A DNA stretch of 28,827 nt from a virus, in the IMG/VR virus record IMGVR_UViG_3300044856_000229, positions 64,001-92,827 of that record. One strand, written 5' to 3'. The position numbers and the translations under genes were made by a program. Shown here piece by piece: positions 4,039-14,581 of this stretch. Position 1 is the first letter of the stretch. Each line of letters starts with the position of its first letter. The notes beneath the pieces are model-generated. The model ran no database searches and was not told the DNA's origin. It saw only the letters and a program-made list of their open reading frames with translations.

Positions 4039-4106
4039 GGATTATTTTGAAAAAAATTGCACAAAATGGGATAAATATTTGCGGAAAAATTTGTGCATTT
4101 TTCCTC

Positions 4107-4136
4107 TTGACAAAGTGTGGCGACCTGTGGTATAAT
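4107..4136 (+). promoter_or_regulatory. rightward extended -10 promoter (TTGACA-18-TGgTATAAT) with upstream GTGCA-N9 element
   Basis: TTGACA at 4107-4112, GGCGACCTGTGG spacer, TATAAT at 4131-4136. Core TTTTCCTCTTGACAAA...GGCGACCTGTGGTATAATT is nearly identical to the copy at 8532-8561. Confidence 0.6.
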
Positions 4137-4142
4137 TTTTCG

Positions 4143-4204
4143 GGCAGCAGTCGAGCCTAACTGTCTGTACGGTCATTAAAAAAAGAAAGCGTTTAAACGC
4201 TTTC
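4143..4204 (+). ncRNA. candidate short non-coding RNA (about 60 nt) ending in bidirectional terminator
   Basis: No ORF. Starts GGGCAGCAG, like the 8568 copy which starts GGGACAGCAGG. Contains AGCCUAACUGUCUG, identical to a 14-nt stretch at 8703-8716 inside leftward small gene 8603..8749. The terminator hairpin is shared with the 3' end of leftward small gene 4193..4315. Confidence 0.3.
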
Positions 4205-4210
4205 TTTTAC
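4177..4210. terminator. bidirectional terminator: perfect 20-bp palindrome GAAAGCGTTTAAACGCTTTC flanked by A7 and T4
   Basis: Exact palindrome at 4185-4204 with U-runs on both strands. Overlaps the stop codon of 4193..4315. Confidence 0.7.
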
Positions 4211-4315
4211 ATCTACCATTTTAATTCTGTGCGGTCTGTCTTTTGCCTCTGCATAGCTTGTGGTTTCCTTTACAATTTTTTTACCTTCCATAATCTGATA
4301 AACAACTTTTCTCAT
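4193..4315 (-). CDS. small protein, 40 aa (MRKVVYQIMEGKKIVKETTSYAEAKDRPHRIKMVDVKESV)
   Basis: Unannotated ORF. RBS AAGAGAGGtattaagaATG. Its stop lies inside the bidirectional terminator. Upstream is a degenerate hairpin element GGGTTAAGCCC and a TATAAT at 4344-4349. Confidence 0.4.
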   Translation of the reverse strand: MRKVVYQIMEGKKIVKETTSYAEAKDRPHRIKMVDVKESV

Positions 4316-5125: not shown

Positions 5126-5158
5126 TCTGGGGGAACTCTCAGAAAAATTTTCTGAGAG
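5126..5158. repeat. perfect 15-bp-arm palindrome GGAACTCTCAGAAAA-a-TTTTCTGAGAGTTCC spanning stop codon of NT5C paralog 1
   Basis: The arms are exact reverse complements. The left arm encodes the last residues (GTLRKF) and the TGA stop lies in the right arm. Possible terminator, RNase III site or operator. Confidence 0.6.
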
Positions 5159-5618
5159 TTCCAATAATGTCGTTTACATCAAAGCTGTTCTCGCCCCACT
5201 CTTCTCTATTACGTTTTTCATCATCAAAGAGCCAACCGTTACAATCAACAACTGTGCTTTTTGGTGTGCCATAGTTTACAATTTTAACCTCATCCCATTC
5301 AACACTAGGAAGATGTTTTTCGAGCCATGCAAGTTTTACGCTTGTTACTGCCGTGTTATAAGCTGTCGAACCATATTTGCTGAGCCAACTTACAATACCG
5401 ATTCTATAACCGTTTGCCTGTAATTTATGTAATACTCTTGCAAATACTGAGAAGTTAAACAGCGGTCTTGCTACTGCATAAGGTGTGGTATCCTCATTTT
5501 CCAGATAGTCCAACCAGTTTTCTACACCATAGAAGTTAGCAAGTGTGCCGTCCATGTCAAAGTAAATAGTTCCTTTTGTTTCCATCATTCCTTTAATTGT
5601 ATTCATCATAATCATCAA
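5139..5618 (-). CDS. HAD-superfamily 5'(3')-deoxyribonucleotidase (NT5C-like), paralog 1
   Basis: HAD motif I FDMDGTLANF. WLEKHLP...VKIVNYGTPKSTVV...GWLFDDE matches the NT5C signature W.EK.FG...IVLT.DK...D.LIDD. About 150 aa. The true start may be the internal ATG at 5588 (METKGTIYFDMDGT), by analogy with paralog 2. Confidence 0.7.
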   Translation of the reverse strand: MMIMMNTIKGMMETKGTIYFDMDGTLANFYGVENWLDYLENEDTTPYAVARPLFNFSVFARVLHKLQANGYRIGIVSWLSKYGSTAYNTAVTSVKLAWLEKHLPSVEWDEVKIVNYGTPKSTVVDCNGWLFDDEKRNREEWGENSFDVNDIIGTLRKFF

Positions 5619-5647
5619 ATCCTTTCTTTTTCCTTTTCTTTAATTAT

Positions 5648-5676
5648 ATTATATACTATCTTTTATAATTTGTCAA
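5648..5676 (-). promoter_or_regulatory. sigmaA-type promoter, leftward (TTGACA-17-TATAAT) with UP-like tract
   Basis: Minus strand reads TTGACA (5676..5671), spacer, then TATAAT (5653..5648). Upstream TTTGTCAACAGTTTTTTTAAATTTTTTTCT is a family A element. Confidence 0.7.
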
Positions 5677-5697
5677 CAGTTTTTTTAAATTTTTTTC

Positions 5698-6093
5698 TCA
5701 GATTTTTGTAATTCCTCTATCTCTTAAATACTCACAAAAGCTTTCAGCGTCCAGTATTTCCGCAAGTCCTTTCATTGAAAGGTTCATTTTGTTATACGAA
5801 CAACGCACTTCAATCGGCTTGAAATTTCTTTCTGTGATAGCTGTTGATAAATAATCTTCAACGTTGCTTAATCGAACAACTGTTTTTCTGAAAATGTTTT
5901 TTGAAAGTTCAGCATTCATAAATAAATCATCTTTTACAAGTTCCACGAGTTCATCAAAAGTTTTAATTGTAAATGTTTGTGTCTTTGCTTCTTCTGGTGT
6001 AAGATATTTTACATGTTTCCAGATACTTGTATCAACAAAATTTTTCCATCCTTCCATTCTGTATTCAAATCTATAATCATAAATCTCTTTCAT
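5698..6093 (-). CDS. hypothetical protein
   Basis: The ATG at 6093 has cassette RBS AAAGAGAGGAAAtaaaaATG. The ORF-track N-terminal extension to 6156 reads through the promoter (MLTSSTL is the reverse complement of the TTGACA hairpin) and is rejected. Confidence 0.7.
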   Translation of the reverse strand: MKEIYDYRFEYRMEGWKNFVDTSIWKHVKYLTPEEAKTQTFTIKTFDELVELVKDDLFMNAELSKNIFRKTVVRLSNVEDYLSTAITERNFKPIEVRCSYNKMNLSMKGLAEILDAESFCEYLRDRGITKI

Positions 6094-6124
6094 TTTTATT
6101 TCCTCTCTTTCATTTGATACATTA

Positions 6125-6153
6125 AGTATAACACATAAGGTTGAACTTGTCAA
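6125..6153 (-). promoter_or_regulatory. sigmaA-type promoter, leftward (TTGACA-17-TATACT), -35 in hairpin GGTTGAActtgTCAAC; -35 overlaps stop codon of 6150..6386
   Basis: Minus strand reads TTGACA (6153..6148), spacer, then TATACT (6130..6125). The upstream gene ends ...KMC* with its TGA stop inside TTGACA. Confidence 0.7.
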
Positions 6154-6386
6154 CACATTTTTAAATTTCTTTTTTTCGCTTCTTCAGTTGTTAATCCATA
6201 ACTTTTCCATGGGTCATATTTTCCGAATAAAATTGTTTCATCAACTGTATCACACATTTTATTATTTACATTATAGTCATAATAAAACCACTTTTTACAA
6301 TCCCATTTAAGCGGACAGTGATAACAAGTTGTTGTAGTTGCTACAGTATCCATGTTTATTGCTAATAATGCTTTTATCTTAATCAT
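6150..6386 (-). CDS. small Cys-containing protein
   Basis: 78-aa ORF. RBS AGGAAGAGGGGtaaacaaaaATG. Only a degenerate promoter upstream (TATAAT at 6415-6420, with the -35 degraded to CCACAA). Confidence 0.6.
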   Translation of the reverse strand: MIKIKALLAINMDTVATTTTCYHCPLKWDCKKWFYYDYNVNNKMCDTVDETILFGKYDPWKSYGLTTEEAKKRNLKMC

Positions 6387-6461
6387 TTTTGTTTACCCCT
6401 CTTCCTTTATCTTGATTATAGTATATCATAGTTGTGGAAAAATGTCTATAGGCAAATTGCA

Positions 6462-6496
6462 CAAAAAAAAGAGCTGAAATTTCAGCTCTTTTTTCT
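6462..6496. terminator. bidirectional terminator: perfect 20-bp palindrome AGAGCTGAAATTTCAGCTCT flanked by A8/T6
   Basis: Palindrome at 6470-6489. A TTGCACAAAA motif is directly adjacent at 6457-6466. Ends gene 6496..6681. Confidence 0.7.
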
Positions 6497-6681
6497 TACT
6501 GCTCCTTTGTTACACTTTTCACAAGCGACCGCAATTCCGCAACTCCAAAAGAGTCCATATACGCGGTCATTGCCTTTTTCAAATCTGCCGTTCTCTTGGC
6601 TCTCAACTGCCCTACCATCCAGTTGTATTCTTCTTCATTTAATTCGTAAGGACAACAACCACTTTCTTTTAATTCATACAT
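6496..6681 (-). CDS. small hypothetical protein (61 aa)
   Basis: RBS AAAGAGAGGAAcaaaaaATG. Tandem promoters at 6716-6744 and 6780-6808. Confidence 0.6.
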   Translation of the reverse strand: MYELKESGCCPYELNEEEYNWMVGQLRAKRTADLKKAMTAYMDSFGVAELRSLVKSVTKEQ

Positions 6682-6715
6682 TTTTTGTTCCTCTCTTTCT
6701 TTATCTTATGTACTT

Positions 6716-6744
6716 ATTATATCAGAGATTCGGGCTTTTGTCAA
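6716..6744 (-). promoter_or_regulatory. sigmaA-type promoter, leftward (TTGACA-17-TATAAT)
   Basis: Minus strand reads TTGACA (6744..6739), spacer, then TATAAT (6721..6716). Confidence 0.65.
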
Positions 6745-6779
6745 CCCTCTTCCTCACTTTTATCTCTTTTGTTAATTAT

Positions 6780-6808
6780 AATATATCACATGGGGTTGAA
6801 TTTGTCAA
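6780..6808 (-). promoter_or_regulatory. sigmaA-type promoter, leftward (TTGACA-17-TATATT) in hairpin GGGGTTGAAtttgTCAACCCC, tandem with 6716-6744
   Basis: Perfect 8-bp-stem hairpin at 6792-6811, followed by a plus-strand T-run. Confidence 0.55.
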
Positions 6809-6824
6809 CCCCAATTTTTATTTT

Positions 6825-7172
6825 TTATCTTTCTTTTAATCCATGTATTATAATTGTATGACCGCAATTATCACAAGTATAATAATATTCATCATCACTA
6901 TTTCTATGATGTACTGCATTTACGAACTTATAAGGCTCATTACATTCTGTGCAATATCCGTTGTTCCATGCTTCATCATCATCTTTGTTTTGTAATGTAA
7001 CCAACCCACCAACACCGCAACCAATAGCAACCGCAAGTATAATTCCTACTATCCATTTGACTATTGGTTTGCTGTCCTCTGCTATAATATTTACAATAAA
7101 TATTGCCATGTAACTGCCGACTGTCAAACTCATAAGTATTGATGTTAAAATAAATTCTGCCGTGTAATTCAT
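6825..7172 (-). CDS. membrane protein (2 TM) with C-terminal zinc-ribbon (CTEC...CDNC)
   Basis: The ATG at 7172 has RBS AAAGAGAGGtaaataaaATG. The ORF-track extension to 7232 is the translation of the promoter hairpin and is rejected. Confidence 0.7.
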   Translation of the reverse strand: MNYTAEFILTSILMSLTVGSYMAIFIVNIIAEDSKPIVKWIVGIILAVAIGCGVGGLVTLQNKDDDEAWNNGYCTECNEPYKFVNAVHHRNSDDEYYYTCDNCGHTIIIHGLKER

Positions 7173-7203
7173 TTTATTTACCTCTCTTTCTTTAACTGTC
7201 TTT

Positions 7204-7232
7204 ATTATAACATAAGAGGTTGAACTTGTCAA
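7204..7232 (-). promoter_or_regulatory. sigmaA-type promoter, leftward (TTGACA-17-TATAAT) in hairpin GAGGTTGAActtgTCAACTCC
   Basis: Minus strand reads TTGACA (7232..7227), spacer, then TATAAT (7209..7204). Confidence 0.7.
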
Positions 7233-7236
7233 CTCC

Positions 7237-7533
7237 TTATCTAAAAAATTCTTTTGCTGTCTCTCTGTATTTTTTTGGAAGGCTTGCGATAAATTTTTCT
7301 TTATCTTCTTCTGACAGTGTTCTTCTTAACTGTCTTGTTGTTACTGAGAATGGATTTAGATGATATTTAAGTATTAATGGAAACGCTCTAATGAATACGA
7401 GTGTTTTAAACGCTTCTATAATTTTGCCAAGGATTTCAACAGGTATCCAAAACCATTTCCATTCATTATAAAAACTTAAATAGCTAAGTGCATACATTAC
7501 AATAACAATTACTACTACTAATGATACTCTCAT
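7237..7533 (-). CDS. small membrane protein
   Basis: 98-aa ORF. RBS AAAGAGAGGtaaatgaaATG. Hydrophobic N-terminus. Confidence 0.7.
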   Translation of the reverse strand: MRVSLVVVIVIVMYALSYLSFYNEWKWFWIPVEILGKIIEAFKTLVFIRAFPLILKYHLNPFSVTTRQLRRTLSEEDKEKFIASLPKKYRETAKEFFR

Positions 7534-7565
7534 TTCATTTACCTCTCTTTCTTTTCTATGTTTTC

Positions 7566-7594
7566 ATTATAACATAAAGGGTTGAACTTGTCAA
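7566..7594 (-). promoter_or_regulatory. sigmaA-type promoter, leftward (TTGACA-17-TATAAT) in perfect hairpin GGGTTGAActtgTCAACCC
   Basis: Minus strand reads TTGACA (7594..7589), spacer, then TATAAT (7571..7566). On the minus strand the hairpin is followed by UUUAUGUUAU and on the plus strand by TTTATTTT, so it can act as a terminator in both directions. Confidence 0.7.
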
Positions 7595-7603
7595 CCCTTT
7601 ATT

Positions 7604-7750
7604 TTAAATTAATTGTAAAAGATAACTTCCATCATTGATAGCAAGAATTCTCACAATTTCATCTTTATTCTGAGAAAGAATCTCACCTGTTGAACAGTCA
7701 ATTAATGCGGTTTCATAACCTTTTTCAATGTAAAGCCCTAAAATCATCAT
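7604..7750 (-). CDS. small protein, 48 aa (MMILGLYIEKGYETALIDCSTGEILSQNKDEIVRILAINDGSYLLQLI)
   Basis: Unannotated ORF. RBS AAGAAAGAGGTGttttttATG. Confidence 0.4.
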   Translation of the reverse strand: MMILGLYIEKGYETALIDCSTGEILSQNKDEIVRILAINDGSYLLQLI

Positions 7751-7766
7751 AAAAAACACCTCTTTC

Positions 7767-7913
7767 TTAAACAAGCTTTAACAAGTTACCGTCTTTATCA
7801 AAACAAAAACCCACAGTTTCATCTGATACAACCTCAAAATAGTCTGAGTCATTTACTGGAATCCATAATCCAGCATTTCTAAAAATTTCTAATAATTTTT
7901 CTTTATCATTCAT
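7767..7913 (-). CDS. small protein, 48 aa (MNDKEKLLEIFRNAGLWIPVNDSDYFEVVSDETVGFCFDKDGNLLKLV)
   Basis: Unannotated ORF. RBS AGAAAGAGAGGtaaagaaaATG. Downstream of promoter 7940-7968. Confidence 0.45.
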   Translation of the reverse strand: MNDKEKLLEIFRNAGLWIPVNDSDYFEVVSDETVGFCFDKDGNLLKLV

Positions 7914-7939
7914 TTTCTTTACCTCTCTTTCTAATACCT

Positions 7940-7968
7940 ATTATACCAGTCCTTGACTTATTTGTCAA
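7940..7968 (-). promoter_or_regulatory. sigmaA-type promoter, leftward (TTGACA-17-TATAAT) in inverted repeat CCTTGACttatttGTCAAGG
   Basis: Minus strand reads TTGACA (7968..7963), spacer, then TATAAT (7945..7940). Confidence 0.7.
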
Positions 7969-8239
7969 GGACTATTTTTTTAATTTCATCATCATAGATG
8001 TTATTGTCAGTGTGCATTGTATCCATGATAAGTTTTACATTATCACCAATTTCAAGGTCTGTGCCGTCCTCAAAATAATACTCCCAGTCATTTCCAGTAG
8101 CATCTGTGAAGGTTGCAAGATTGTTATTCACTTCTACAACCTCTGCGGTTCTGGTGTATGTACTCTCATAAGCTCCCACACCACCAATTGCTGTGATACC
8201 CACCATAATTGCTAATACTGTTTTAATCATCTTCATCAT
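7958..8239 (-). CDS. small secreted/membrane-anchored protein (N-terminal signal-like segment)
   Basis: 93-aa ORF. The cassette RBS abuts the first ATG, so the real start may be the ATG at 8230 (MIKTVLAIMVG). Hydrophobic N-terminus followed by an acidic domain. Confidence 0.65.
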   Translation of the reverse strand: MMKMIKTVLAIMVGITAIGGVGAYESTYTRTAEVVEVNNNLATFTDATGNDWEYYFEDGTDLEIGDNVKLIMDTMHTDNNIYDDEIKKIVLDK

Positions 8240-8264
8240 TTCCTCTCTTTCATTTGATACATTA

Positions 8265-8293
8265 AGTATAACACCAAGTTACTCATTTGTCAA
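8265..8293 (-). promoter_or_regulatory. sigmaA-type promoter, leftward (TTGACA-17-TATACT) with conserved 5'UTR cassette
   Basis: Minus strand reads TTGACA (8293..8288), spacer, then TATACT (8270..8265). The -35 lies inside the 3' coding end of small ORF 8279..8413. Confidence 0.7.
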
Positions 8294-8413
8294 GTCTTTT
8301 TTCTCATATTTTTCTAATTCTTCTTCTATTGCATCATACTCATCGTTAAATAATTCACAAGCATTGATTACACACTGCATGATAAATGTTATCTGTTCTT
8401 TAGTAAATTCCAT
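8279..8413 (-). CDS. small acidic protein, 44 aa (MEFTKEQITFIMQCVINACELFNDEYDAIEEELEKYEKKDLTNE)
   Basis: Unannotated ORF. RBS AAAGGGGAAcaaaaacATG. Promoter at 8445-8473. Confidence 0.4.
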   Translation of the reverse strand: MEFTKEQITFIMQCVINACELFNDEYDAIEEELEKYEKKDLTNE

Positions 8414-8444
8414 GTTTTTGTTCCCCTTTCTTTATCTTGATTAT

Positions 8445-8473
8445 AGTATACTACAAGCCAATAGGTTTGTCAA
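8445..8473 (-). promoter_or_regulatory. sigmaA-type promoter, leftward (TTGACA-17-TATACT)
   Basis: Minus strand reads TTGACA (8473..8468), spacer, then TATACT (8450..8445). Paralogous to the promoter at 1922-1950. Confidence 0.65.
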
Positions 8474-8531
8474 TGTACAAAATAGCCAATTTCGGGAAGC
8501 AAATTATTTAATATTTTGTGCAATTTTCCTC

Positions 8532-8561
8532 TTGACAAACTGCGGCGACCTGTGGTATAAT
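8532..8561 (+). promoter_or_regulatory. rightward extended -10 promoter (TTGACA-18-TGgTATAAT) with upstream GTGCA-N9 element
   Basis: TTGACA at 8532-8537 and TATAAT at 8556-8561. Near-identical core to the copy at 4107-4136. GTGCA ends 9 nt before the -35. Confidence 0.6.
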
Positions 8562-8567
8562 TAGTTG

Positions 8568-8608
8568 GGACAGCAGGCGACCATAGCGGTTGCCCATTTC
8601 TTTTAATA
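8568..8608 (+). ncRNA. candidate short non-coding RNA (about 40 nt) antisense to 3' end of leftward gene 8603..8749
   Basis: Starts GGGACAGCAGG. Hairpin GGCGACCatagcGGTTGCC followed by CATTTCTTTT. Overlaps the stop codon region of the convergent small gene. Confidence 0.3.
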
Positions 8609-8749
8609 CTCTATAATTGTATGCATCAATCGCATCAACTGTTCATTGGTAAACTCTCCCGACTCACAATCTTCACAAAACATAACAGTTAGTGGACTCT
8701 CAAAGCCTAACTGTCTGATTACATTATCCATCATTTCTTTTACTGTCAT
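8603..8749 (-). CDS. small protein, 48 aa (MTVKEMMDNVIRQLGFESPLTVMFCEDCESGEFTNEQLMRLMHTIIEY)
   Basis: Unannotated ORF. RBS AGGAGGtcatgacaATG. An alternative start 2 codons upstream is too close to the RBS. Promoter at 8781-8809. Confidence 0.45.
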   Translation of the reverse strand: MTVKEMMDNVIRQLGFESPLTVMFCEDCESGEFTNEQLMRLMHTIIEY

Positions 8750-8780
8750 TGTCATGACCTCCTTCTCTTAACTTGATTAT

Positions 8781-8809
8781 AGTATACTACAATCAGATTG
8801 ATTTGTCAA
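8781..8809 (-). promoter_or_regulatory. sigmaA-type promoter, leftward (TTGACA-17-TATACT)
   Basis: Minus strand reads TTGACA (8809..8804), spacer, then TATACT (8786..8781). Confidence 0.65.
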
Positions 8810-9045
8810 TAGGAAAATAAAAAATATTTTAAAAATATTTTTGCTTTCCCGCATTAATCCTTTACTACTGGAATGCTGTAGTGTTGCGTTACTTTAACGC
8901 TTTACCACTTTAGTGTAGTGAAGTCTTGCCCTCATTATCTTTGTTATTCTATTAACATTCCTGTTAATTTTTTAACAATCTGCGTCCCACGAACCGCAGA
9001 ACGTAGATAAAGAGAGAACGTTTGTTCTCTCCTCTCTTTATCTCT
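8810..9045. other. 235-bp non-coding block with tandem AAAATATTTT palindromes, multiple short G/C hairpins and inverted repeat TGTTAA-N4-TTAACA
   Basis: No ORF with an RBS. Partly paralogous to 9840-9960 (ACTACTGG(G)AAT(G/C)C..GT and the TGTTAATTTTTTAACAA element). Candidate structured RNA or regulatory region. Confidence 0.35.
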
Positions 9046-9513
9046 TTACACATGATACTGTATTAACTCTTTAAGCACGTCCATCATAACCACAGCATCA
9101 ACACTTGCACCTTGCCACTCTTCTCTATTCCTTGCTTCATCATCGAATAGTATTCCACCACAAGGCACTGCCGCACGTTTATTCTGTCCATACTCTGTTA
9201 CAATAATCTCATTCCAATTAACACTAGGAAGATGCTTCTTTAACCATTTCCTTTTGGCTTCTTCTATTGCTTGCACATAGTCAAGTGTTGCGTCCTTACT
9301 TGCCCATGAGATAACACCTAACTTATAACCTCTTCTCTGTAGTGCATTAATACGCCTTGCAAATAGACTCATAGATACAAGCGGTCTTGCTATCTCATAA
9401 GGCACTATACTACCATGCACCAGATAGTCAAGCCAACCTTCTACACTGTAAAGGTCTGCAATAGTTCCATCTAAATCGAACCACAACCATTTATTATCTA
9501 ACATACTAATCAC
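9046..9513 (-). CDS. HAD-superfamily 5'(3')-deoxyribonucleotidase (NT5C-like), paralog 2
   Basis: FDLDGTIADL (HAD motif I) and WLKKHLP...IIVTEYGQNKRAAV...GILFDDE. About 45% identical to paralog 1 at 5139..5618. The ORF-track start at 9513 is GTG. The ATG at 9504 (MLDNKWLWFDLDGT) is likely the real start. Confidence 0.7.
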   Translation of the reverse strand: MISMLDNKWLWFDLDGTIADLYSVEGWLDYLVHGSIVPYEIARPLVSMSLFARRINALQRRGYKLGVISWASKDATLDYVQAIEEAKRKWLKKHLPSVNWNEIIVTEYGQNKRAAVPCGGILFDDEARNREEWQGASVDAVVMMDVLKELIQYHV

Positions 9514-9545
9514 TCTTTCTTTCTTTTATCTTTATCTTTATATTT

Positions 9546-9574
9546 ATTATAACACCTTTGTGCTTGCTTGTCAA
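9546..9574 (-). promoter_or_regulatory. sigmaA-type promoter, leftward (TTGACA-17-TATAAT)
   Basis: Minus strand reads TTGACA (9574..9569), spacer, then TATAAT (9551..9546). Paralogous to the promoter at 3012-3040. Confidence 0.7.
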
Positions 9575-9635
9575 GACCTTTCTTTGTGTCTTTGTCTTGC
9601 CTCTTGGCTCAAGGGTTAGCCTGAGCTAACCCATC

Positions 9636-9755
9636 CTATGCCAGATAAGTCTCGAGGATAGAGCCACCTACTCTCTTGGCAGTTAGTTCAGCCAAACTTT
9701 TGCTACTTGTCAATAAAACGAATTTTCCCTCTCTATCAATAACCTCATACTTCAT
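9636..9755 (-). CDS. small protein, 39 aa (MKYEVIDREGKFVLLTSSKSLAELTAKRVGGSILETYLA)
   Basis: Unannotated ORF. RBS AAAGAGAGGAAcaaaaacATG. Followed by hairpin GGGTTAGCtcagGCTAACCC. Promoter at 9792-9820. Confidence 0.45.
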   Translation of the reverse strand: MKYEVIDREGKFVLLTSSKSLAELTAKRVGGSILETYLA

Positions 9756-9791
9756 GTTTTTGTTCCTCTCTTTCTCTCTTTCTTTATACAT

Positions 9792-9820
9792 AGTATAGCA
9801 TACAAGTAGCTACTTGTCAA
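9792..9820 (-). promoter_or_regulatory. sigmaA-type promoter, leftward (TTGACA-17-TATACT)
   Basis: Minus strand reads TTGACA (9820..9815), spacer, then TATACT (9797..9792). Confidence 0.65.
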
Positions 9821-9919
9821 GAGGTTTTTATAAATTTTCTTTGTTAATTTTTTAACAAGCGAACTACTGGGAATCGCAGTTTTCGTCACCAACTTACGCT
9901 CCATGAGAGCACCAAATCT

Positions 9920-9948
9920 ATTATACCACAGATGTGCGGTGATGTCAA
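9920..9948 (-). promoter_or_regulatory. leftward extended -10 promoter (TTGACA-17-TGgTATAAT), tandem upstream of 9792-9820
   Basis: Minus strand reads cATTGACAtcaccgcacatctgTGGTATAATag. Resembles the rightward promoters through CTGTGGTATAAT. Confidence 0.55.
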
Positions 9949-9957
9949 TGGGTAACA

Positions 9958-10056
9958 TTGCACAAAGATTGACTACTGATTTTGTGCAATGTGCTGAAAA
10001 TTATTTTTGTGCAAAGTGACGAAATTTGGGAAAAAAATTAAAATATTTTTGTGCAA
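9958..10056. promoter_or_regulatory. array of TTTTGTGCAA motifs (direct copies at 9980-9989, 10005-10014, 10047-10056; inverted copy at 9958-9967) upstream of rightward promoter
   Basis: Exact 10-mer repeats. The last copy is positioned GTGCA-N9-TTGACA, as at the three other rightward promoters. Candidate activator/repressor site or UP-element array. Confidence 0.45.
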
Positions 10057-10064
10057 CTTTTTGC

Positions 10065-10094
10065 TTGACAAATTGTTGTGTCTCGTGTTATAAT
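10065..10094 (+). promoter_or_regulatory. rightward extended -10 promoter (TTGACA-18-TGtTATAAT)
   Basis: TTGACA at 10065-10070 and TATAAT at 10089-10094, with TG at -15/-14. Confidence 0.55.
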
Positions 10095-10100
10095 GGAAAT

Positions 10101-10170
10101 TCGGGCCTGCGCTTGCGTCTACGGCCCGAGGATTTGACGAGAGCGTCATTACTTTTTATGTATTTTTCCC
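10101..10170 (+). ncRNA. candidate short non-coding RNA (GC-rich hairpin GGGCC-15nt-GGCCC, then GACGagaGCGTC + U-tract)
   Basis: No ORF. Structured 5' end followed by a U-rich tail. Lies in the 360-bp non-coding gap 9959-10320. Confidence 0.25.
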
Positions 10171-11334: not shown

Positions 11335-11630
11335 CTTATAATTACCGTCCCATGTTTTCCTTCTCTTCTTAGCCTCTCCAAAACTGGATGGCGGGAATTT
11401 TTTTCATTCATAAATACAATAGCAAAATCAAGTTCTTTAATATAATCATTAAATGAGCCAAAGAAATATCTTTTGCCGGAGCCATTATTTTCTGCCCATT
11501 TATCTCCCAAAGAATTGGGAGAACACACTATATTAAATAAATATGTTCCCTTTATTTCAATAAGCTCATTTAATCTTTTATCCAAAAGATCATAATCATC
11601 AAGTGTGCCTCCAATTATTCCTACATTCAT
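11331..11630 (-). CDS. small Rossmann-like protein, possible SLOG/DUF2493-like (Gly-rich N-terminus VGIIGGT)
   Basis: 99-aa ORF. ATGA overlap with the stop of the Thg1-like gene. Glycine-rich loop near the N-terminus. Family assignment is tentative. Confidence 0.6.
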   Translation of the reverse strand: MNVGIIGGTLDDYDLLDKRLNELIEIKGTYLFNIVCSPNSLGDKWAENNGSGKRYFFGSFNDYIKELDFAIVFMNEKNSRHPVLERLRREGKHGTVIIR

Positions 11631-12484
11631 GCGATTGACTCAATAAAAACTAACTTATCAATATAATCTCTATCTGCCCCTTTGAAAATAGGAATTTCAT
11701 AATCTATTTTCCATTTGCGGCGAACAATTATTCTTTCACCAATTTGCTCTCCAAGATAAACATTTGGCTCTTTAATTGTTTCTTTTTCTTCTGTCTTAAT
11801 GCACGCGGTTCCTCGTTTACATGGAATTGTAAAAGTATTCCAATTAATTCCATACTGAACCATTAGCATATCTTGAATATCATTACAAGTTTTATCTTTA
11901 AGTTTAGCATGCGAGAAATGAGCTTGTCCTACCATCTGAATACTATTCCGCATTGCATCAAGCTGCCGCCAATAAATAAGGTTTGTTACTTCTTCTTTTG
12001 GAATATTAAAACATCTTGCGTCAAACATTGCTCCTTTTTCTGCGGCATTTACATATCTTTCAATAAGTCTTTTATTTTCCTCTATAAGAGGATCATAAGT
12101 TGAATTATATTTAATTATATTCTCAGAAAAATATTTATTAAAAGCCACTGTTGCCATAGAAGCTGATATAGAAGCCATTTTCTGGACCTCATAATTAAAC
12201 CAAGCCTCTGAAGTTAACTTTTGGTAATCAGTTAAAATCAAAGTAATTTCATCTGACTGAGTATATCCAAAAATACAACCCTGAATATTTTCACAAAGAT
12301 GCTTCATTGTTCTTTGCATTGTATCCATTAACACAGGGTCAAATGGTTTTTGAAAACCTCGTGTAAAAGTATGAAAAGCTTTTCCATCAATCCTAATAGC
12401 TACTGGCATGCGGCGAAGTAATTGCGTTTTTGCGGGATTTTCATAAAAATCTTTCATTCTTGCGGCAAGTTCACTATTATCCAT
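11627..12484 (-). CDS. Thg1-like protein (tRNA-His guanylyltransferase family, 3'-5' nucleotidyltransferase)
   Basis: Motifs match Thg1 in order: VAIRIDGKAFHTF (Thg1 VVVRLDGRNFHRF), KPFD, YTQSDEITL (Thg1 YGQSDEYSF), QKMASISAS and YWRQLDA (Thg1 SWRQADC). RBS AAGGAAGaaaaATG. Confidence 0.8.
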   Translation of the reverse strand: MDNSELAARMKDFYENPAKTQLLRRMPVAIRIDGKAFHTFTRGFQKPFDPVLMDTMQRTMKHLCENIQGCIFGYTQSDEITLILTDYQKLTSEAWFNYEVQKMASISASMATVAFNKYFSENIIKYNSTYDPLIEENKRLIERYVNAAEKGAMFDARCFNIPKEEVTNLIYWRQLDAMRNSIQMVGQAHFSHAKLKDKTCNDIQDMLMVQYGINWNTFTIPCKRGTACIKTEEKETIKEPNVYLGEQIGERIIVRRKWKIDYEIPIFKGADRDYIDKLVFIESIA

Positions 12485-12518: not shown

Positions 12519-12848
12519 TTATAATTTAATTTTTAAATTTTGTCCATTCTGATCTTTTATTGAGATTTCTGTGCGGTTTTCAGTAAGATTTGTTTCTTTT
12601 AAGAACCAATGCCATACATGAGGTTCTTCAATTGTGGTTCCAATATATTGGGTATTTTCTAACACTTTTTCGGGAATCGGCTGTCCTGTTCCAATAGGAT
12701 TCACAAAGAAACTTCTAATAGGAGCTGCAGTATCAGTTAAAGCCCAAAGATAAGTGCGGCCATTCATTTCTTTTACATCAAGAAATTTAATAAGCGGTAA
12801 TTCAAGTACTCCAATATCATTTAAACAATATTTAAGAATTCTTTTCAT
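12519..12848 (-). CDS. hypothetical protein (109 aa)
   Basis: RBS AGAGGAtaaacttaATG. Overlaps the 3' end of the AbrB-like gene by 17 nt. Confidence 0.65.
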   Translation of the reverse strand: MKRILKYCLNDIGVLELPLIKFLDVKEMNGRTYLWALTDTAAPIRSFFVNPIGTGQPIPEKVLENTQYIGTTIEEPHVWHWFLKETNLTENRTEISIKDQNGQNLKIKL

Positions 12849-13098
12849 TAAGTTTATCCTCTAATTTTTCTGGAATTTCTGCGCCAATTTCTTCAAGAAT
12901 TGATTTTGCGGCTAAGAATTTTGGGTCTACTCCATCGGCAATAGATAAAGCAATATACATTTTACCATCTAAATCAAATGTAAAAAATTCAAGCTCTTCA
13001 TTATCTCGCATAAACATTCTATCTCTTAATCCTTTTGGAAGAGTAATTCTTCCCAATGAATCTAATCTTCTTCTTGCGTTTTCTGGTCTTAATATCAT
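12832..13098 (-). CDS. AbrB/SpoVT/MazE-fold DNA-binding protein
   Basis: N-terminal LDSLGRITLPKGLRDRMFM matches the swapped-hairpin AbrB-N motif (VDELGRVVIPIELRRTLGI). 88 aa. RBS AAGGAGataaaataATG. Confidence 0.7.
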   Translation of the reverse strand: MILRPENARRRLDSLGRITLPKGLRDRMFMRDNEELEFFTFDLDGKMYIALSIADGVDPKFLAAKSILEEIGAEIPEKLEDKLNEKNS

Positions 13099-13110
13099 TA
13101 TTTTATCTCC

Positions 13111-13347
13111 TTAATTAAATTTAATATTATTATCATCATCGCTACCATCCCAATTACTACCCATTAAAATATCTAATATCCATGTAGCAATATTAGAGAT
13201 GAAAAATGCGGGTGCTGTTATTAAAAATATTATGAGTACAATTAACATTTCTACCCAGCCTATTTGATACAGCGAATCCGCAGATTGTATAGCCAAAGAT
13301 AAAAACATAAGTAACCATAAAATATAAATAACTATTATTAAAGTCAT
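13111..13347 (-). CDS. small membrane protein (2 TM)
   Basis: 78-aa ORF. RBS AAAGAGGAtacaaatATG. First gene after promoter 13386-13414. Confidence 0.65.
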   Translation of the reverse strand: MTLIIVIYILWLLMFLSLAIQSADSLYQIGWVEMLIVLIIFLITAPAFFISNIATWILDILMGSNWDGSDDDNNIKFN

Positions 13348-13385
13348 ATTTGTATCCTCTTTATTTTTACCTTTAATTTACTAAT

Positions 13386-13414
13386 ATAATATCAAAAAAT
13401 TTTAATGTTGTCAA
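13386..13414 (-). promoter_or_regulatory. sigmaA-type promoter, leftward (TTGACA-17-TATTAT), divergent partner of 13420-13448
   Basis: Minus strand reads TTGACA (13414..13409). The two -35 boxes are back-to-back: TTGTCAAagaatTTGACT. Confidence 0.6.
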
Positions 13415-13471: not shown

Positions 13472-14581
13472 ATGATTAAATTAGACTATACTATACAAAC
13501 TCCAGAAGAAAGAAACGAACTAGTGAAAAAAATTTTAGAAGAAACTCCTGACCCTAGTGAGAGATATTTAGAAATTTTGGCTGACTACCTCGTTCTTTGT
13601 ATGGAGAAACAAGAGAAGAAGCAGAAACAAATTTTAACAGAAAATCGAATGACAACTGTTAATAAGAGAGAAACTTCTTATGAAGGTCTTGTTTCCCAAT
13701 TAGAAAATGGCGAAGATGGTATCTATAACCTAATAAATGAAAGTAAAACAACAATATTTCAACCAAAAGTGACAATAACAAAAAAAGATTTAGAAGAAAT
13801 ACCTTATTTAAGACAATTACGTGATGCTATCAATAGTTGGGAAATAAAACTTAAAAAAGCGCAAGGGCGCGATGCGTATATAATTAAAAAAGCATTGATT
13901 GAAATGCGTAAAGACCAATATGTAATAAAAAATGCTTACCGCAAGCCTATTATCTTTAATAAAATTAGTCGTTCTAATTTTGCGTCTAGATTGGTTGAAG
14001 ATTTTATATTAGATGAAAATAATTATATTGTTCCTAGTGGGGTTTCTTTATGTAGTCCTACAGTTTGTTCATTAATTCTTTGTAATTATTCGCAACTTAA
14101 AGAAGAGAGCTGGGGAAAATTTGAAGGTGATTTATGGTACCTTATGGAATCATTTGATAAAATATCTACAGACGCTTTAAAAGAATACCCATTATATGAA
14201 GAAATAGTAAAATGTAAAATAGATGGACTACAAAATATAGAAATACAGAAAATATTAAAAGAAAAGTATGATACAACTCATAGCTTAGAATATATTTCTA
14301 GCTTATGGAGGAAAAAGATTCCAAATCTTATTGCCTCAAAAGCAGAGGACGTAGAATTAAGTTGGTATTTTTTAAATACTGAAAAAGGTAAATATAAAAG
14401 ATGCAGTCGATGCGGGAAAATTAAACTTGCTCATAATAAATATTTTAGTAAAAATAAAACTAGCAAGGATGGTTGGTATTCCATTTGTAAAGAATGTAGA
14501 AATAAAAAAATAAGGACAAAAAGAAATAGACTTTCTTTATCCTTTTATAAAGGAGGTATAATTTATGGCAACAAATACTGA
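13472..14581 (+). CDS. hypothetical protein with C-terminal zinc ribbon (CSRC-x20-CKEC)
   Basis: 369-aa ORF. Basic tail. First gene of the rightward arm. Confidence 0.75.
   Translation: MIKLDYTIQTPEERNELVKKILEETPDPSERYLEILADYLVLCMEKQEKKQKQILTENRMTTVNKRETSYEGLVSQLENGEDGIYNLINESKTTIFQPKVTITKKDLEEIPYLRQLRDAINSWEIKLKKAQGRDAYIIKKALIEMRKDQYVIKNAYRKPIIFNKISRSNFASRLVEDFILDENNYIVPSGVSLCSPTVCSLILCNYSQLKEESWGKFEGDLWYLMESFDKISTDALKEYPLYEEIVKCKIDGLQNIEIQKILKEKYDTTHSLEYISSLWRKKIPNLIASKAEDVELSWYFLNTEKGKYKRCSRCGKIKLAHNKYFSKNKTSKDGWYSICKECRNKKIRTKRNRLSLSFYKGGIIYGNKY

Follow-up and report, generated by a model that had tools for sequence, protein, structure and literature searches.

Why would the early region of a phage encode two diverged deoxyribonucleotidase-like enzymes? 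The window analyzed here, a stretch of 28,827 nucleotides of the IMG/VR virus record IMGVR_UViG_3300044856_000229, contains two minus-strand ORFs of ~150 codons, which had been predicted from their letters to be paralogous 5'(3')-deoxyribonucleotidases of the HAD superfamily and are here called par1 and par2 (Table 1). Both were found where predicted: the maximal ORFs span positions 5139 to 5618 (TTG start; 159 amino acids) and 9046 to 9513 (GTG start; 155 amino acids), respectively, and the lengths of homologs point to ATG codons at 5609 and 9504 as the likely starts. The two proteins aligned by BLASTP over 142 amino acids with no gaps and 46% identity (E = 1e-51), which is far beyond chance and in agreement with the ~45% estimated originally.

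Table 1. Positions of par1, par2, and their associated signals in the window
Feature	Positions	Strand	Description
par1 CDS	5139..5609	minus	Compact NT5C-like HAD phosphatase; 156 aa from likely ATG at 5609
par1 promoter	5648..5676	minus	TTGACA-N17-TATAAT; 12/12 in promoter scan
par1 3' inverted repeat	5132..5162	minus	15-nt arms GGAACTCTCAGAAAA(T)TTTTCTGAGAGTTCC
par2 CDS	9046..9504	minus	Compact NT5C-like HAD phosphatase, divergent clade; 152 aa; likely ATG at 9504
par2 promoter	9546..9574	minus	TTGACA-N17-TATAAT; 12/12 in promoter scan
Non-coding block 3' of par2	8810..9045	minus	236 nt; no credible ORF
par2 terminator-like hairpin	9004..9043	minus	Core GAGAGAAC-AAAC-GTTCTCTC at 9012..9031, then U-rich tail UUUAUCU
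Second conserved hairpin	8979..9000	minus	UCUGCG-N10-CGCAGA

Both proteins retain the complete set of HAD catalytic residues: the Asp nucleophile and the Asp at position +2, Ser in motif II, Lys in motif III, and the DD pair of motif IV. Motif I, predicted as DxDGT, reads DMDGT in par1 and DLDGT in par2, and the expected C-terminal signature was recovered as WLEKHLPSV...FDDE and WLKKHLPSV...FDDE, respectively. Among 238 family sequences, residues D10, D12, G13, and T14 are invariant, and S66, K109, D121, and D122 are invariant or nearly so. No catalytic Asp has been lost from either copy, a possibility that the original prediction had raised, and both copies look like functional, intact HAD phosphatases. 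The dN/dS values (0.05 to 0.16 across both genes; 0.05 to 0.09 for par1) indicate purifying selection.

Assignment to the NT5C family (Pfam PF06941; gathering cutoff, 24.8 bits) held in part. NT5C was the top Pfam family for all 30 members tested (all E ≤ 0.01; best E, 4.8e-8) and par2 passed the cutoff with 31.2 bits, but par1 stayed below it with 22.9 bits; the matches mainly cover profile positions 75 to 148 of 180. Both proteins fall into phrog_2643 of PHROGs, annotated as "5'-3' deoxyribonucleotidase" (E ~1e-11; par1 E, 9e-11). The extended motif I is FDLDGTIADL in par2 and FDMDGTLANF in par1, compared with VDMDGVLADF in cdN, and hhalign lined up the K..W...H, K, and DD elements with those of cdN/mdN (KRKWLKKHL against KYRWVEQHL) at a probability of only 44.8%. 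No solved NT5C structure was retrieved at E ≤ 10 when PDB chains were searched with the family sequence profile. The PDB-chain matches obtained with each paralog and with the profile (an ETS domain, RAF, and the Pal lipoprotein) were spurious and included no HAD structure. Neither protein came close to a cutoff in NCBIfam, and no match to a defense system was returned by PADLOC. On these sequence comparisons the NT5C assignment is marginal and partly supported, and because it is marginal, dNMPs are regarded here as the putative substrates.

The model of par2 consists of a HAD Rossmannoid core and a short two-helix cap; the ~30 residues of this cap (helices at residues 24 to 29 and 34 to 38) follow motif I and precede the helix that leads to motif II. 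The cap is about half the size of its NT5C counterpart, the ~60-residue, four-helix C1-type cap that carries the base-stacking aromatics, and substrate recognition may therefore differ from that of NT5C. The mini-cap aromatics Y19, W24, and Y36 are conserved despite the reduced architecture. In BFVD, the highest-ranking matches were phage proteins that carry a deoxyribonucleotidase or nucleotidase annotation (TM scores, 0.65 to 0.74), and the nearest structures appeared NT5C-like, with HisB-N and T4 Pnkp almost equal in score. Two alternative activities have to be weighed here. First, par1 and par2 could resemble the T4 Pnkp phosphatase domain and be polynucleotide 3'-phosphatases that heal the ends of broken RNA or DNA, perhaps together with a nearby Thg1-like enzyme. 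This is quite unlikely, since PNKP-type proteins scored below the nucleotidase type in BFVD (TM, 0.53 to 0.57) and HAD_PNKP (PF25109) matched only 3 of 30 members, weakly (par1, 12.4 bits against a cutoff of 27.6), whereas NT5C matched 30 of 30. In addition, both proteins are single-domain proteins of ~150 amino acids with no fused kinase domain, no kinase or ligase gene was recognized where the window is annotated, and par1 and par2 have the C-terminal K..W...H signature in common with cdN/mdN.

Second, the NT5C label could be a best-hit artifact: par1 and par2 would then dephosphorylate a sugar phosphate or some other small metabolite, in the manner of AfhF, GmhB, or HisB-N, and might, for example, supply a DNA-glycosylation or surface-glycan pathway. 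There is a precedent for such mislabeling, as arabinose-phosphate phosphatases occur among small phage HADs with the best hit "putative 5'(3')-deoxyribonucleotidase" (PMC13326640). Both fold searches ranked HisB-N and GmhB close to the top, and AfhF (9iqw) was at Foldseek rank 26. However, the NCBIfam models of HAD-IIIA and HAD-IIIC (TIGR01662 and TIGR01681) gave 12 to 19 bits, far under their cutoffs of 35.75 and 44.6, and no gene for sugar activation or for a glycosyltransferase was found among the recurrent neighbors. A nucleotide substrate is also favored by the NT5C-type signatures and by the conserved aromatics of the mini-cap, which makes the sugar-phosphate explanation unlikely.

The term "paralogous" applies to the pair only in the broad sense: each copy is nearer to genes of other phages than to its partner. 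The pair is not a local duplication; par1 and par2 fall into different clades of a large family. More than 7,900 par1 homologs with 60% to 92% identity were found, counted as sequence clusters at 90% identity, and this compact NT5C-like subfamily is apparently restricted to phages. Ten members are of double length, their extra regions containing no Pfam domains except for one DUF7689. A megablast search of the region against deposited phages gave no match, and tblastn with par2 as the query retrieved only three records from the phage collection, namely, phAss-1 and two unannotated gut contigs, and no Bacillus phages. Although phAss-1, the relative nearest to this phage among those deposited, uses code 15, stop-codon recoding was rejected for the window because the late genes of the window are uninterrupted ORFs under code 11.

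Both genes had been placed in an early region and under promoters of different families. The early character is consistent with the density of 12/12 sigma-70 promoters and the neighboring phage sigma factor gene: the gene strand carries 16 near-consensus host-type promoters within 6.4 kb, and the sigma factor gene adjoins this promoter-dense region. PHROG and Pfam annotation of the small early ORFs of the window is almost entirely empty. A Thg1-like tRNA 5'-end repair enzyme is encoded nearby. As for the promoter families, the flanking sequences do differ between par1 and par2 and an extended -10 TG is present only in the par2 promoter, but both promoters match the consensus at all 12 positions and fall together in D2, a broad family of promoter repeats. 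That of par1, which has an A/T-rich tract upstream, was also assigned to repeat families D5 and D7, and it is conserved together with its gene in mosaic relatives (88% to 91% nucleotide identity). Because both promoters are of the consensus sigma-70 type, the suggestion that the two copies differ in timing finds no support.

The 3' ends differ in kind, as was expected. The 15-bp palindrome predicted for par1 is present, includes the TGA stop codon of the gene itself, and folds as RNA into a 14-bp hairpin (-21.1 kcal/mol; z = -6.7). In relatives, the hairpin has compensatory double changes (GGAACTCTCAG/CTGAGAGTTCC versus GGAACGCTTAG/CTAAGCGTTCC), which include a change of the stop codon from TGA to TAA. 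Since no U-tract follows the hairpin, we only infer that it acts as a terminator. The structured 235-bp block predicted downstream of par2 proved to be 236 nt long and is followed by the -35 element of the next promoter (position 8809). Its minimum free energy is -66.2 kcal/mol, compared with -39.5 kcal/mol for shuffled sequences (z = -6.9), and the fold contains two conserved hairpins and about four more predicted stem-loops. The core of the terminator-like hairpin was picked up by the terminator scan; its stem is unchanged in five relatives, and in L004 the loop is inverted and the stem kept. Similarly, the loop of the second hairpin varies among five relatives and its stem is invariant. The block occurs solely in relatives that have par2 and is 89% conserved in L058, L001, L004, and L005; covariation comprises only five pairs, from five close sequences. 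No tRNA was found in the block and no Rfam family matched it at gathering or permissive thresholds, a single U4 match (E, 0.75) being ascribed to chance.

The reading that we favor, with a probability of roughly 0.55, is that the window forms part of the early arm, devoted to host takeover, of a large uncultured gut/rumen Firmicutes phage with two dNMP-phosphatase cassettes, distinct in clade and split in substrate. Two independent promoter-ORF-hairpin cassettes would each encode one Mg2+-dependent HAD phosphatase of ~150 amino acids, which would convert (deoxy)nucleoside monophosphates, the putative substrates, to nucleosides and phosphate early in infection. The invariant aromatics of the mini-cap (Y19, W24, and Y36) and W67 in the motif II loop may form the base-binding pocket. 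The two clades could have been brought into one genome through cassette shuffling or ancient duplication, and both copies would be retained owing to different substrate preferences. The fixed differences between par1 and par2 lie in the cap (residues 23 to 45) and in the loops beside motif II (residues 68 and 72 to 73) and motif III (residues 107 to 112), and a difference in specificity, as originally proposed, is plausible on the basis of these positions. A literature search found no assayed member of the compact subfamily.

Alternatively, par1 and par2 may be redundant copies that do not divide the labor, their number reflecting dosage and the shuffling of cassettes in a mosaic early region. 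At least two copies are present in 22 of 84 related loci, in varying combinations, and par2 is dispensable in that it is missing from mosaic relatives that hold the par1 cassette. The catalytic residues of the two proteins are all identical, those of the cap mostly so, and the genes have the same type of consensus promoter. However, within-genome pairs are diverged throughout (43% to 63% identity) with no recent duplicates, purifying selection maintains both clades, and the fixed differences cluster in substrate-facing loops. Redundancy is the less likely reading, and the substrate split is preferred.

What the cassettes would do for the phage may be reflected in their neighbors. In favor of dNMP substrates, a nucleoside 2-deoxyribosyltransferase (NDT; PF05014, 75 bits) is encoded on the same strand at a distance of 1 to 9 kb in 16 of the 84 related loci, and FolD was found in 9; neither was found in the window. 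Against such substrates, neither ThyA nor any further gene dedicated to the pyrimidine pathway was found within 10 kb of the HAD genes in the 84 loci, and a dUTPase is near them in one locus only (L040). It is conceivable, as a long shot, that specificity-split dNMPases remove particular canonical dNMPs and, with the NDT and FolD of related early regions, belong to an undescribed pathway of DNA-base replacement or modification in a lineage of large uncultured gut/rumen Firmicutes phages, or else that the reduced cap reflects a class of substrates new to NT5C-like enzymes.

Set against known systems, the pair is a fairly ordinary find, because the family is already recognized and phages of this group commonly carry it, often in multiple copies. 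The deoxyribonucleotidase-type label is already given by PHROGs and JGI, and auxiliary nucleotide-metabolism genes of this kind are to be expected. With the mammalian cdN/mdN enzymes (NT5C/NT5M; PF06941), par1 and par2 share the HAD fold and its four catalytic motifs, together with DxDG[VT][LI]A[DN][FL] as an extended motif I and K-x2-W-x3-H ... K ... DD toward the C terminus. Identity to the Staphylococcus epidermidis deoxyribonucleotidase-like protein 3bwv, a structural-genomics entry whose function is itself putative according to its description, is only 18%. The T4 Pnkp phosphatase domain and the type III HADs HisB-N and GmhB resemble par1 and par2 in size, minimal cap, and DxDGT motif and have nearly equal structural scores, but their Pfam and NCBIfam models score far below cutoffs; unlike T4 Pnkp, par1 and par2 have an NT5C-type C-terminal signature and no kinase domain.

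Two phage systems are closer in presumed function. T5 Dmp is a pre-early 5'-deoxynucleoside monophosphatase that is dispensable and enhances virulence (bioRxiv 10.64898/2026.04.02.716235). Host-type promoters drive its expression as soon as infection begins, the same stage as that inferred for par1 and par2, although it has no sequence similarity to par2 detectable by tblastn. T5 has a single Dmp copy, whereas this phage has two NT5C-like genes, and T5 pairs Dmp with massive host DNA degradation, whereas no equivalent nuclease was identified in the window. PBS1 Dtm, a PF06941 dTMP phosphatase, takes a dNMP out of the pool and is employed by PBS1 to build its dU-DNA (PMC12697855). As a phage-encoded NT5C-family HAD, Dtm is a proposed functional analogue of par1 and par2, although the tblastn search of the phage collection gave no pairwise similarity to par2. 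The substrate identity of one member would annotate thousands of metagenomic proteins and bear on whether multiple copies mean multiple specificities. If the assignment is right, par1 and par2 would reshape the nucleotide pool as Dmp and Dtm do in their phages, adding to the short list of phage dNMP-pool enzymes at the start of infection a compact enzyme that is very common in large gut/rumen phages, frequently as two diverged copies.

The two homologous minus-strand ORFs of the original prediction, par1 and par2, are real, and their products share 46% identity over 142 residues with no gaps (BLASTP, E = 1e-51). The likely ATG start codons were chosen from homolog lengths. Across an alignment of 30 members of the par1/par2 family and a wider sample of 238 sequences, the HAD catalytic residues were invariant or nearly so, and both copies have them: D10, D12, G13, and T14 of motif I, S66 of motif II, K109 of motif III, and D121/D122 of motif IV (par2 numbering from MLDNKW). 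Positions Y19, W24, L25, P35, Y36, W67, K70, K84, W87, H91, N126, and W130 were also conserved, and neither copy has lost a catalytic aspartate (D10, D12, or D121/D122). The dN/dS values are 0.05 to 0.09 for par1 and 0.10 to 0.16 for par2, and both genes are under purifying selection. Both are intact, selected HAD phosphatases with early-type promoters and signatures of the 5'(3')-deoxyribonucleotidase (NT5C, PF06941) type, which is as far as the direct evidence reaches.

Features in and around the two HAD genes (window positions)
Feature	Position	Strand	Details
par1 ORF	5139..5618	minus	159 aa at most; likely ATG 5609 (156 aa)
par2 ORF	9046..9513	minus	155 aa at most; likely ATG 9504 (152 aa)
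par1 3' inverted repeat	5132..5162	minus	holds stop codon; 14-bp hairpin, z = -6.7
par2 3' noncoding block	downstream of par2	minus	236 nt long; z = -6.9 versus shuffled
par1 cassette	5689..5132		promoter, gene, hairpin
Small-gene arm	1-13.4 kb	minus	small genes, including Thg1-like enzyme
Structural arm	13.4-28.2 kb	plus	sigma factor, terminase, portal, structural genes
Thg1-like gene	11627-12484	minus	tRNA-His guanylyltransferase family; phrog_4717, E = 1.5e-84
Sigma-factor-like protein	13472-14581	plus	phrog_5767, E = 5e-48
Small protein	2587-2967	minus	~125-137 aa
Near-consensus promoter copies (TTTGTGCAnnTTTTCCTCTTGACAAAnTG..N..TATAAT)	4085-4220, 8510-8606, 10043-10160	plus	three copies of ~60 nt
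Hairpin-embedded -35 sites	7574-7602, 6791-6813, 7948-7973, 6125-6153		TTGACA in G+C-rich hairpin, e.g., GGGTTGACAAGTTCAACCC
ORF-poor region upstream of par2	~9800-10320		extra consensus promoters 9948 and 9820 (minus); one antisense unit
Repeated segment	10112..9951		74-77% identity elsewhere in relatives L005 and L058

In the Pfam profile search, NT5C was the top, weak match for both proteins, with par2 (31.2 bits) above the gathering cutoff of 24.8 bits and par1 (22.9 bits) below it; the matches fall mostly in the C-terminal half. All 30 aligned members matched NT5C (best E value, 4.8e-8), the generic HAD models matched 7 to 9 members, and HAD_PNKP matched 3. Both proteins also belong to phrog_2643, "5'-3' deoxyribonucleotidase" (PHROGs, E ~1e-11). 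No NCBIfam score for par1 or par2 came near the cutoffs, and no solved HAD structure in the PDB was retrieved by sequence with par1, par2, or the family profile. Comparison of the family by hhalign with the mammalian NT5C members cdN and mdN, the sequences of which were taken from the PDB search, gave a probability of 44.8% (E = 2e-4) over 46 columns only, pairing KRKWLKKHL of the family with KYRWVEQHL of cdN/mdN, together with the motif III lysine and the motif IV DD. The extended motif I also looks NT5C-like by eye (FDLDGTIADL and FDMDGTLANF versus VDMDGVLADF in cdN). An NT5C-like subfamily is the best-supported label, if a marginal one, and no unrelated HAD subfamily was assigned, although the assignment is softer than originally implied.

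AlphaFold2 modeled par2 with confidence (pLDDT, 90.6; pTM, 0.86). In the model, the HAD core is interrupted after motif I, before the core helix that follows, by a short segment containing two helices (residues 24 to 29 and 34 to 38). The modeled HAD fold is certain; the canonical four-helix NT5C cap is absent from the model. A Foldseek search of the PDB placed HisB-N and the T4 Pnkp phosphatase on top and cdN at rank 19. Among predicted viral structures, the best matches were annotated as phage 5'(3')-deoxyribonucleotidases or nucleotidases (E values down to 1e-7; TM scores, 0.65 to 0.74), and PNKP-type proteins ranked lower (TM scores, 0.53 to 0.57). That par1 and par2 are polynucleotide 3'-phosphatases seems quite improbable.

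We consider that par1 and par2 may well be dNMPases (probability, about 0.55), a reading suggested by the family signatures, the precedents of PBS1 Dtm and T5 Dmp, the aromatic residues of the mini-cap, which are conserved in the family, and the gene neighborhood in the lineage. Both precedents are experimentally characterized: PBS1 Dtm is a PF06941 dTMP phosphatase (PMC12697855), and T5 Dmp, a dNMP phosphatase of the pre-early stage, improves virulence but is not essential (bioRxiv 10.64898/2026.04.02.716235). In 16 of 84 related loci bearing genes of the family (L011, L039, L043, L049, L061, L065, L066, L068, L069, L071, L072, L077, L078, L080, L082, and L083), a genuine nucleoside 2-deoxyribosyltransferase (NDT; PF05014, 75 bits versus a cutoff of 28.8) is encoded on the strand of the HAD gene, 1 to 9 kb away from it, and FolD (methylene-THF dehydrogenase/cyclohydrolase) is found with the HAD gene in the early arm of 9 (L007 to L009, L013, L015, L016, L052, L078, and L083). 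This context gives only moderate support for dNMP substrates, because neither NDT nor FolD is present in the window and no ThyA was found near the HAD copies of the 84 loci. The probability is also held at this level because small phage HADs with "deoxyribonucleotidase" as the best match proved to be arabinose-phosphate phosphatases (PMC13326640). By the same precedent, par1 and par2 could be phosphatases of sugars or other metabolites, which we regard as unlikely.

Whether the two putative dNMPases are specialized is a question separate from that of their substrate. Differences fixed between the par1 and par2 clades are concentrated in the mini-cap (positions 23, 29, 32, 34, 37, 43, and 45) and in the loops after motif II (68, 72, and 73) and around motif III (107, 108, and 110 to 112). 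This placement fits the putative difference in substrate preference originally proposed, and simple redundancy of the two copies is possible but doubtful.

Homologs are abundant: among clusters at 90% identity, par1 has more than 7,990 matches and par2 has 4,724. The family profile matched 1,389 clusters at 50% identity (E <= 1e-3) among 1.84 billion representatives, so its reach is limited and stops short of canonical NT5C. There are at least 472 relatives in IMG/VR, on contigs that range in length from a few kb to 400 kb. A search of 185,579 species genomes gave only 9 matches, every one of them in a MAG contig from gut or rumen rather than in an isolate, and the family therefore looks phage restricted.

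Both copies are found in the same order in the closest relatives, L058 (90% to 95% nucleotide identity) and L001 to L005 (82% to 86%), and 22 of the 84 sources have at least two copies within ±10 kb (HMM count). Related contigs include IMGVR_UViG_3300045988_131786 (150 kb; 90% to 95% nucleotide identity to the window) and ENA ERZ27246002 k123_391875 (182 kb). Pairs within a genome are always diverged (43% to 63% identity), and in nearly all of them each copy has a nearer relative in another genome; in a neighbor-joining tree, par1 and par2 fall into separate clades. The par1 cassette is shared by eight mosaic contigs (88% to 91% nucleotide identity), where it lies among reshuffled neighbors. 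No par2-clade gene was found within 10 kb of it in these contigs, nor was one from them among the top-ranked IMG/VR matches, where a copy of 85% to 95% identity would rank. par2 is an accessory gene restricted to the near relatives of the window. Since the clades are separate, the pairs diverged, and the mosaic contigs devoid of par2, the two genes represent separate lineages of the family brought together in a single genome and not a local duplication; they are "paralogous" only as homologous members of one family. In L001, a 182-kb relative, an HNH_3 homing endonuclease gene (12842-13387) lies directly upstream of the par1-type gene and is missing at the equivalent position of the window (~5620-5700), which indicates mobile-element traffic adjoining the cassette.

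The two genes were also said to have promoters of different families. The flanks differ, and the extended -10 TG is present only in the par2 promoter, but both promoters are perfect consensus, which leaves no basis for different timing. The 3' ends differ as predicted, par1 having a palindromic hairpin and par2 a structured noncoding block. The coding arm of the par1 hairpin shows synonymous changes in relatives (ACT to ACG and CTC to CTT) that are matched in the noncoding arm, and a change of the stop codon from TGA to TAA is likewise compensated. In more distant members of the family, separate hairpins overlap the stop codon, one with a T7 tail; these findings are good evidence for a selected RNA hairpin. 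It would act as a terminator or stabilize the 3' end, efficient termination being uncertain for the window copy, which has no U-tract. The par2 block opens with a terminator-like hairpin at 9004..9043, which has a U-rich tail, and another conserved hairpin comes after it. Conservation of the block across five par2-bearing genomes is 89%, with little informative covariation, and Rfam and tRNA searches gave no match.

The TTTGTGCAnnTTTTCCTCTTGACAAAnTG promoters are oriented against the early genes and are followed within 40 to 70 nt by one or more hairpins and a T-run, making these units candidate small RNAs of 40 to 70 nt. They occur at syntenic sites in close relatives (88% to 100% identity), their promoter part appears again elsewhere, more distant loci included, and no Rfam match was found. 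The ORF-poor region has GC-richer surroundings, with a GC content of 0.38 at positions 9001 to 10000 versus ~0.30 in the rest of the window. In several early cassettes, a T-rich run follows the hairpin holding the -35 element, so that one gene's terminator and the next gene's promoter overlap.

Two divergent arms make up the window, which is a fragment of a phage. Sixteen promoter-like sites, each matching TTGACA-N17-TATAAT at 11 or 12 of 12 positions, lie in a 6.4-kb stretch of the minus-strand arm (overall, 47 sites versus 27.6 ± 4.2 in shuffles). Because of these dense promoters and the adjoining phage-encoded sigma factor, this presumably early arm resembles the early modules with which large Firmicutes phages take over the host; we take the SPO1 early module to be comparable. 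The C-terminal ~50 residues of the sigma-factor-like protein match the endonuclease VII, HNH, and Lar-like profiles in the zinc-binding parts of these. The Thg1-like gene is kept in close relatives, despite which ARAGORN detected no tRNA gene in the window. The small protein at 2587-2967 belongs to a multicopy family (191 members in 77 of 84 loci, often 2 to 4 per locus) with only weak winged-helix-type matches (MarR_2 and Penicillinase_R) and no PHROG match; these may be expanded early DNA-binding proteins.

Megablast found no close relative among deposited phages. The nearest deposited relative is the 136-kb human gut phage phAss-1 (OQ749652.1; predicted hosts, Eubacteriales), whose portal shares 39% identity with that of the window; identity to the portals of Enterococcus phage EF1-type genomes is ~29%. 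The clade of phAss-1 is TAG recoded (code 15), whereas the late genes of the window are uninterrupted under the standard code (code 11), and it thus appears that the wider lineage is not uniform in its recoding.

Phage dNMP phosphatases are of a known kind, multiple copies are common in this lineage, and the par1/par2 family is already recognized, in phrog_2643 and in the JGI name for P0003. Mildly interesting points are that diverged copies are repeatedly found as pairs, that the subfamily is very abundant, and that its cap is reduced: NT5C enzymes of the cdN/mdN type have a four-helix cap, whereas that of par2 is predicted from the model to have only two helices.
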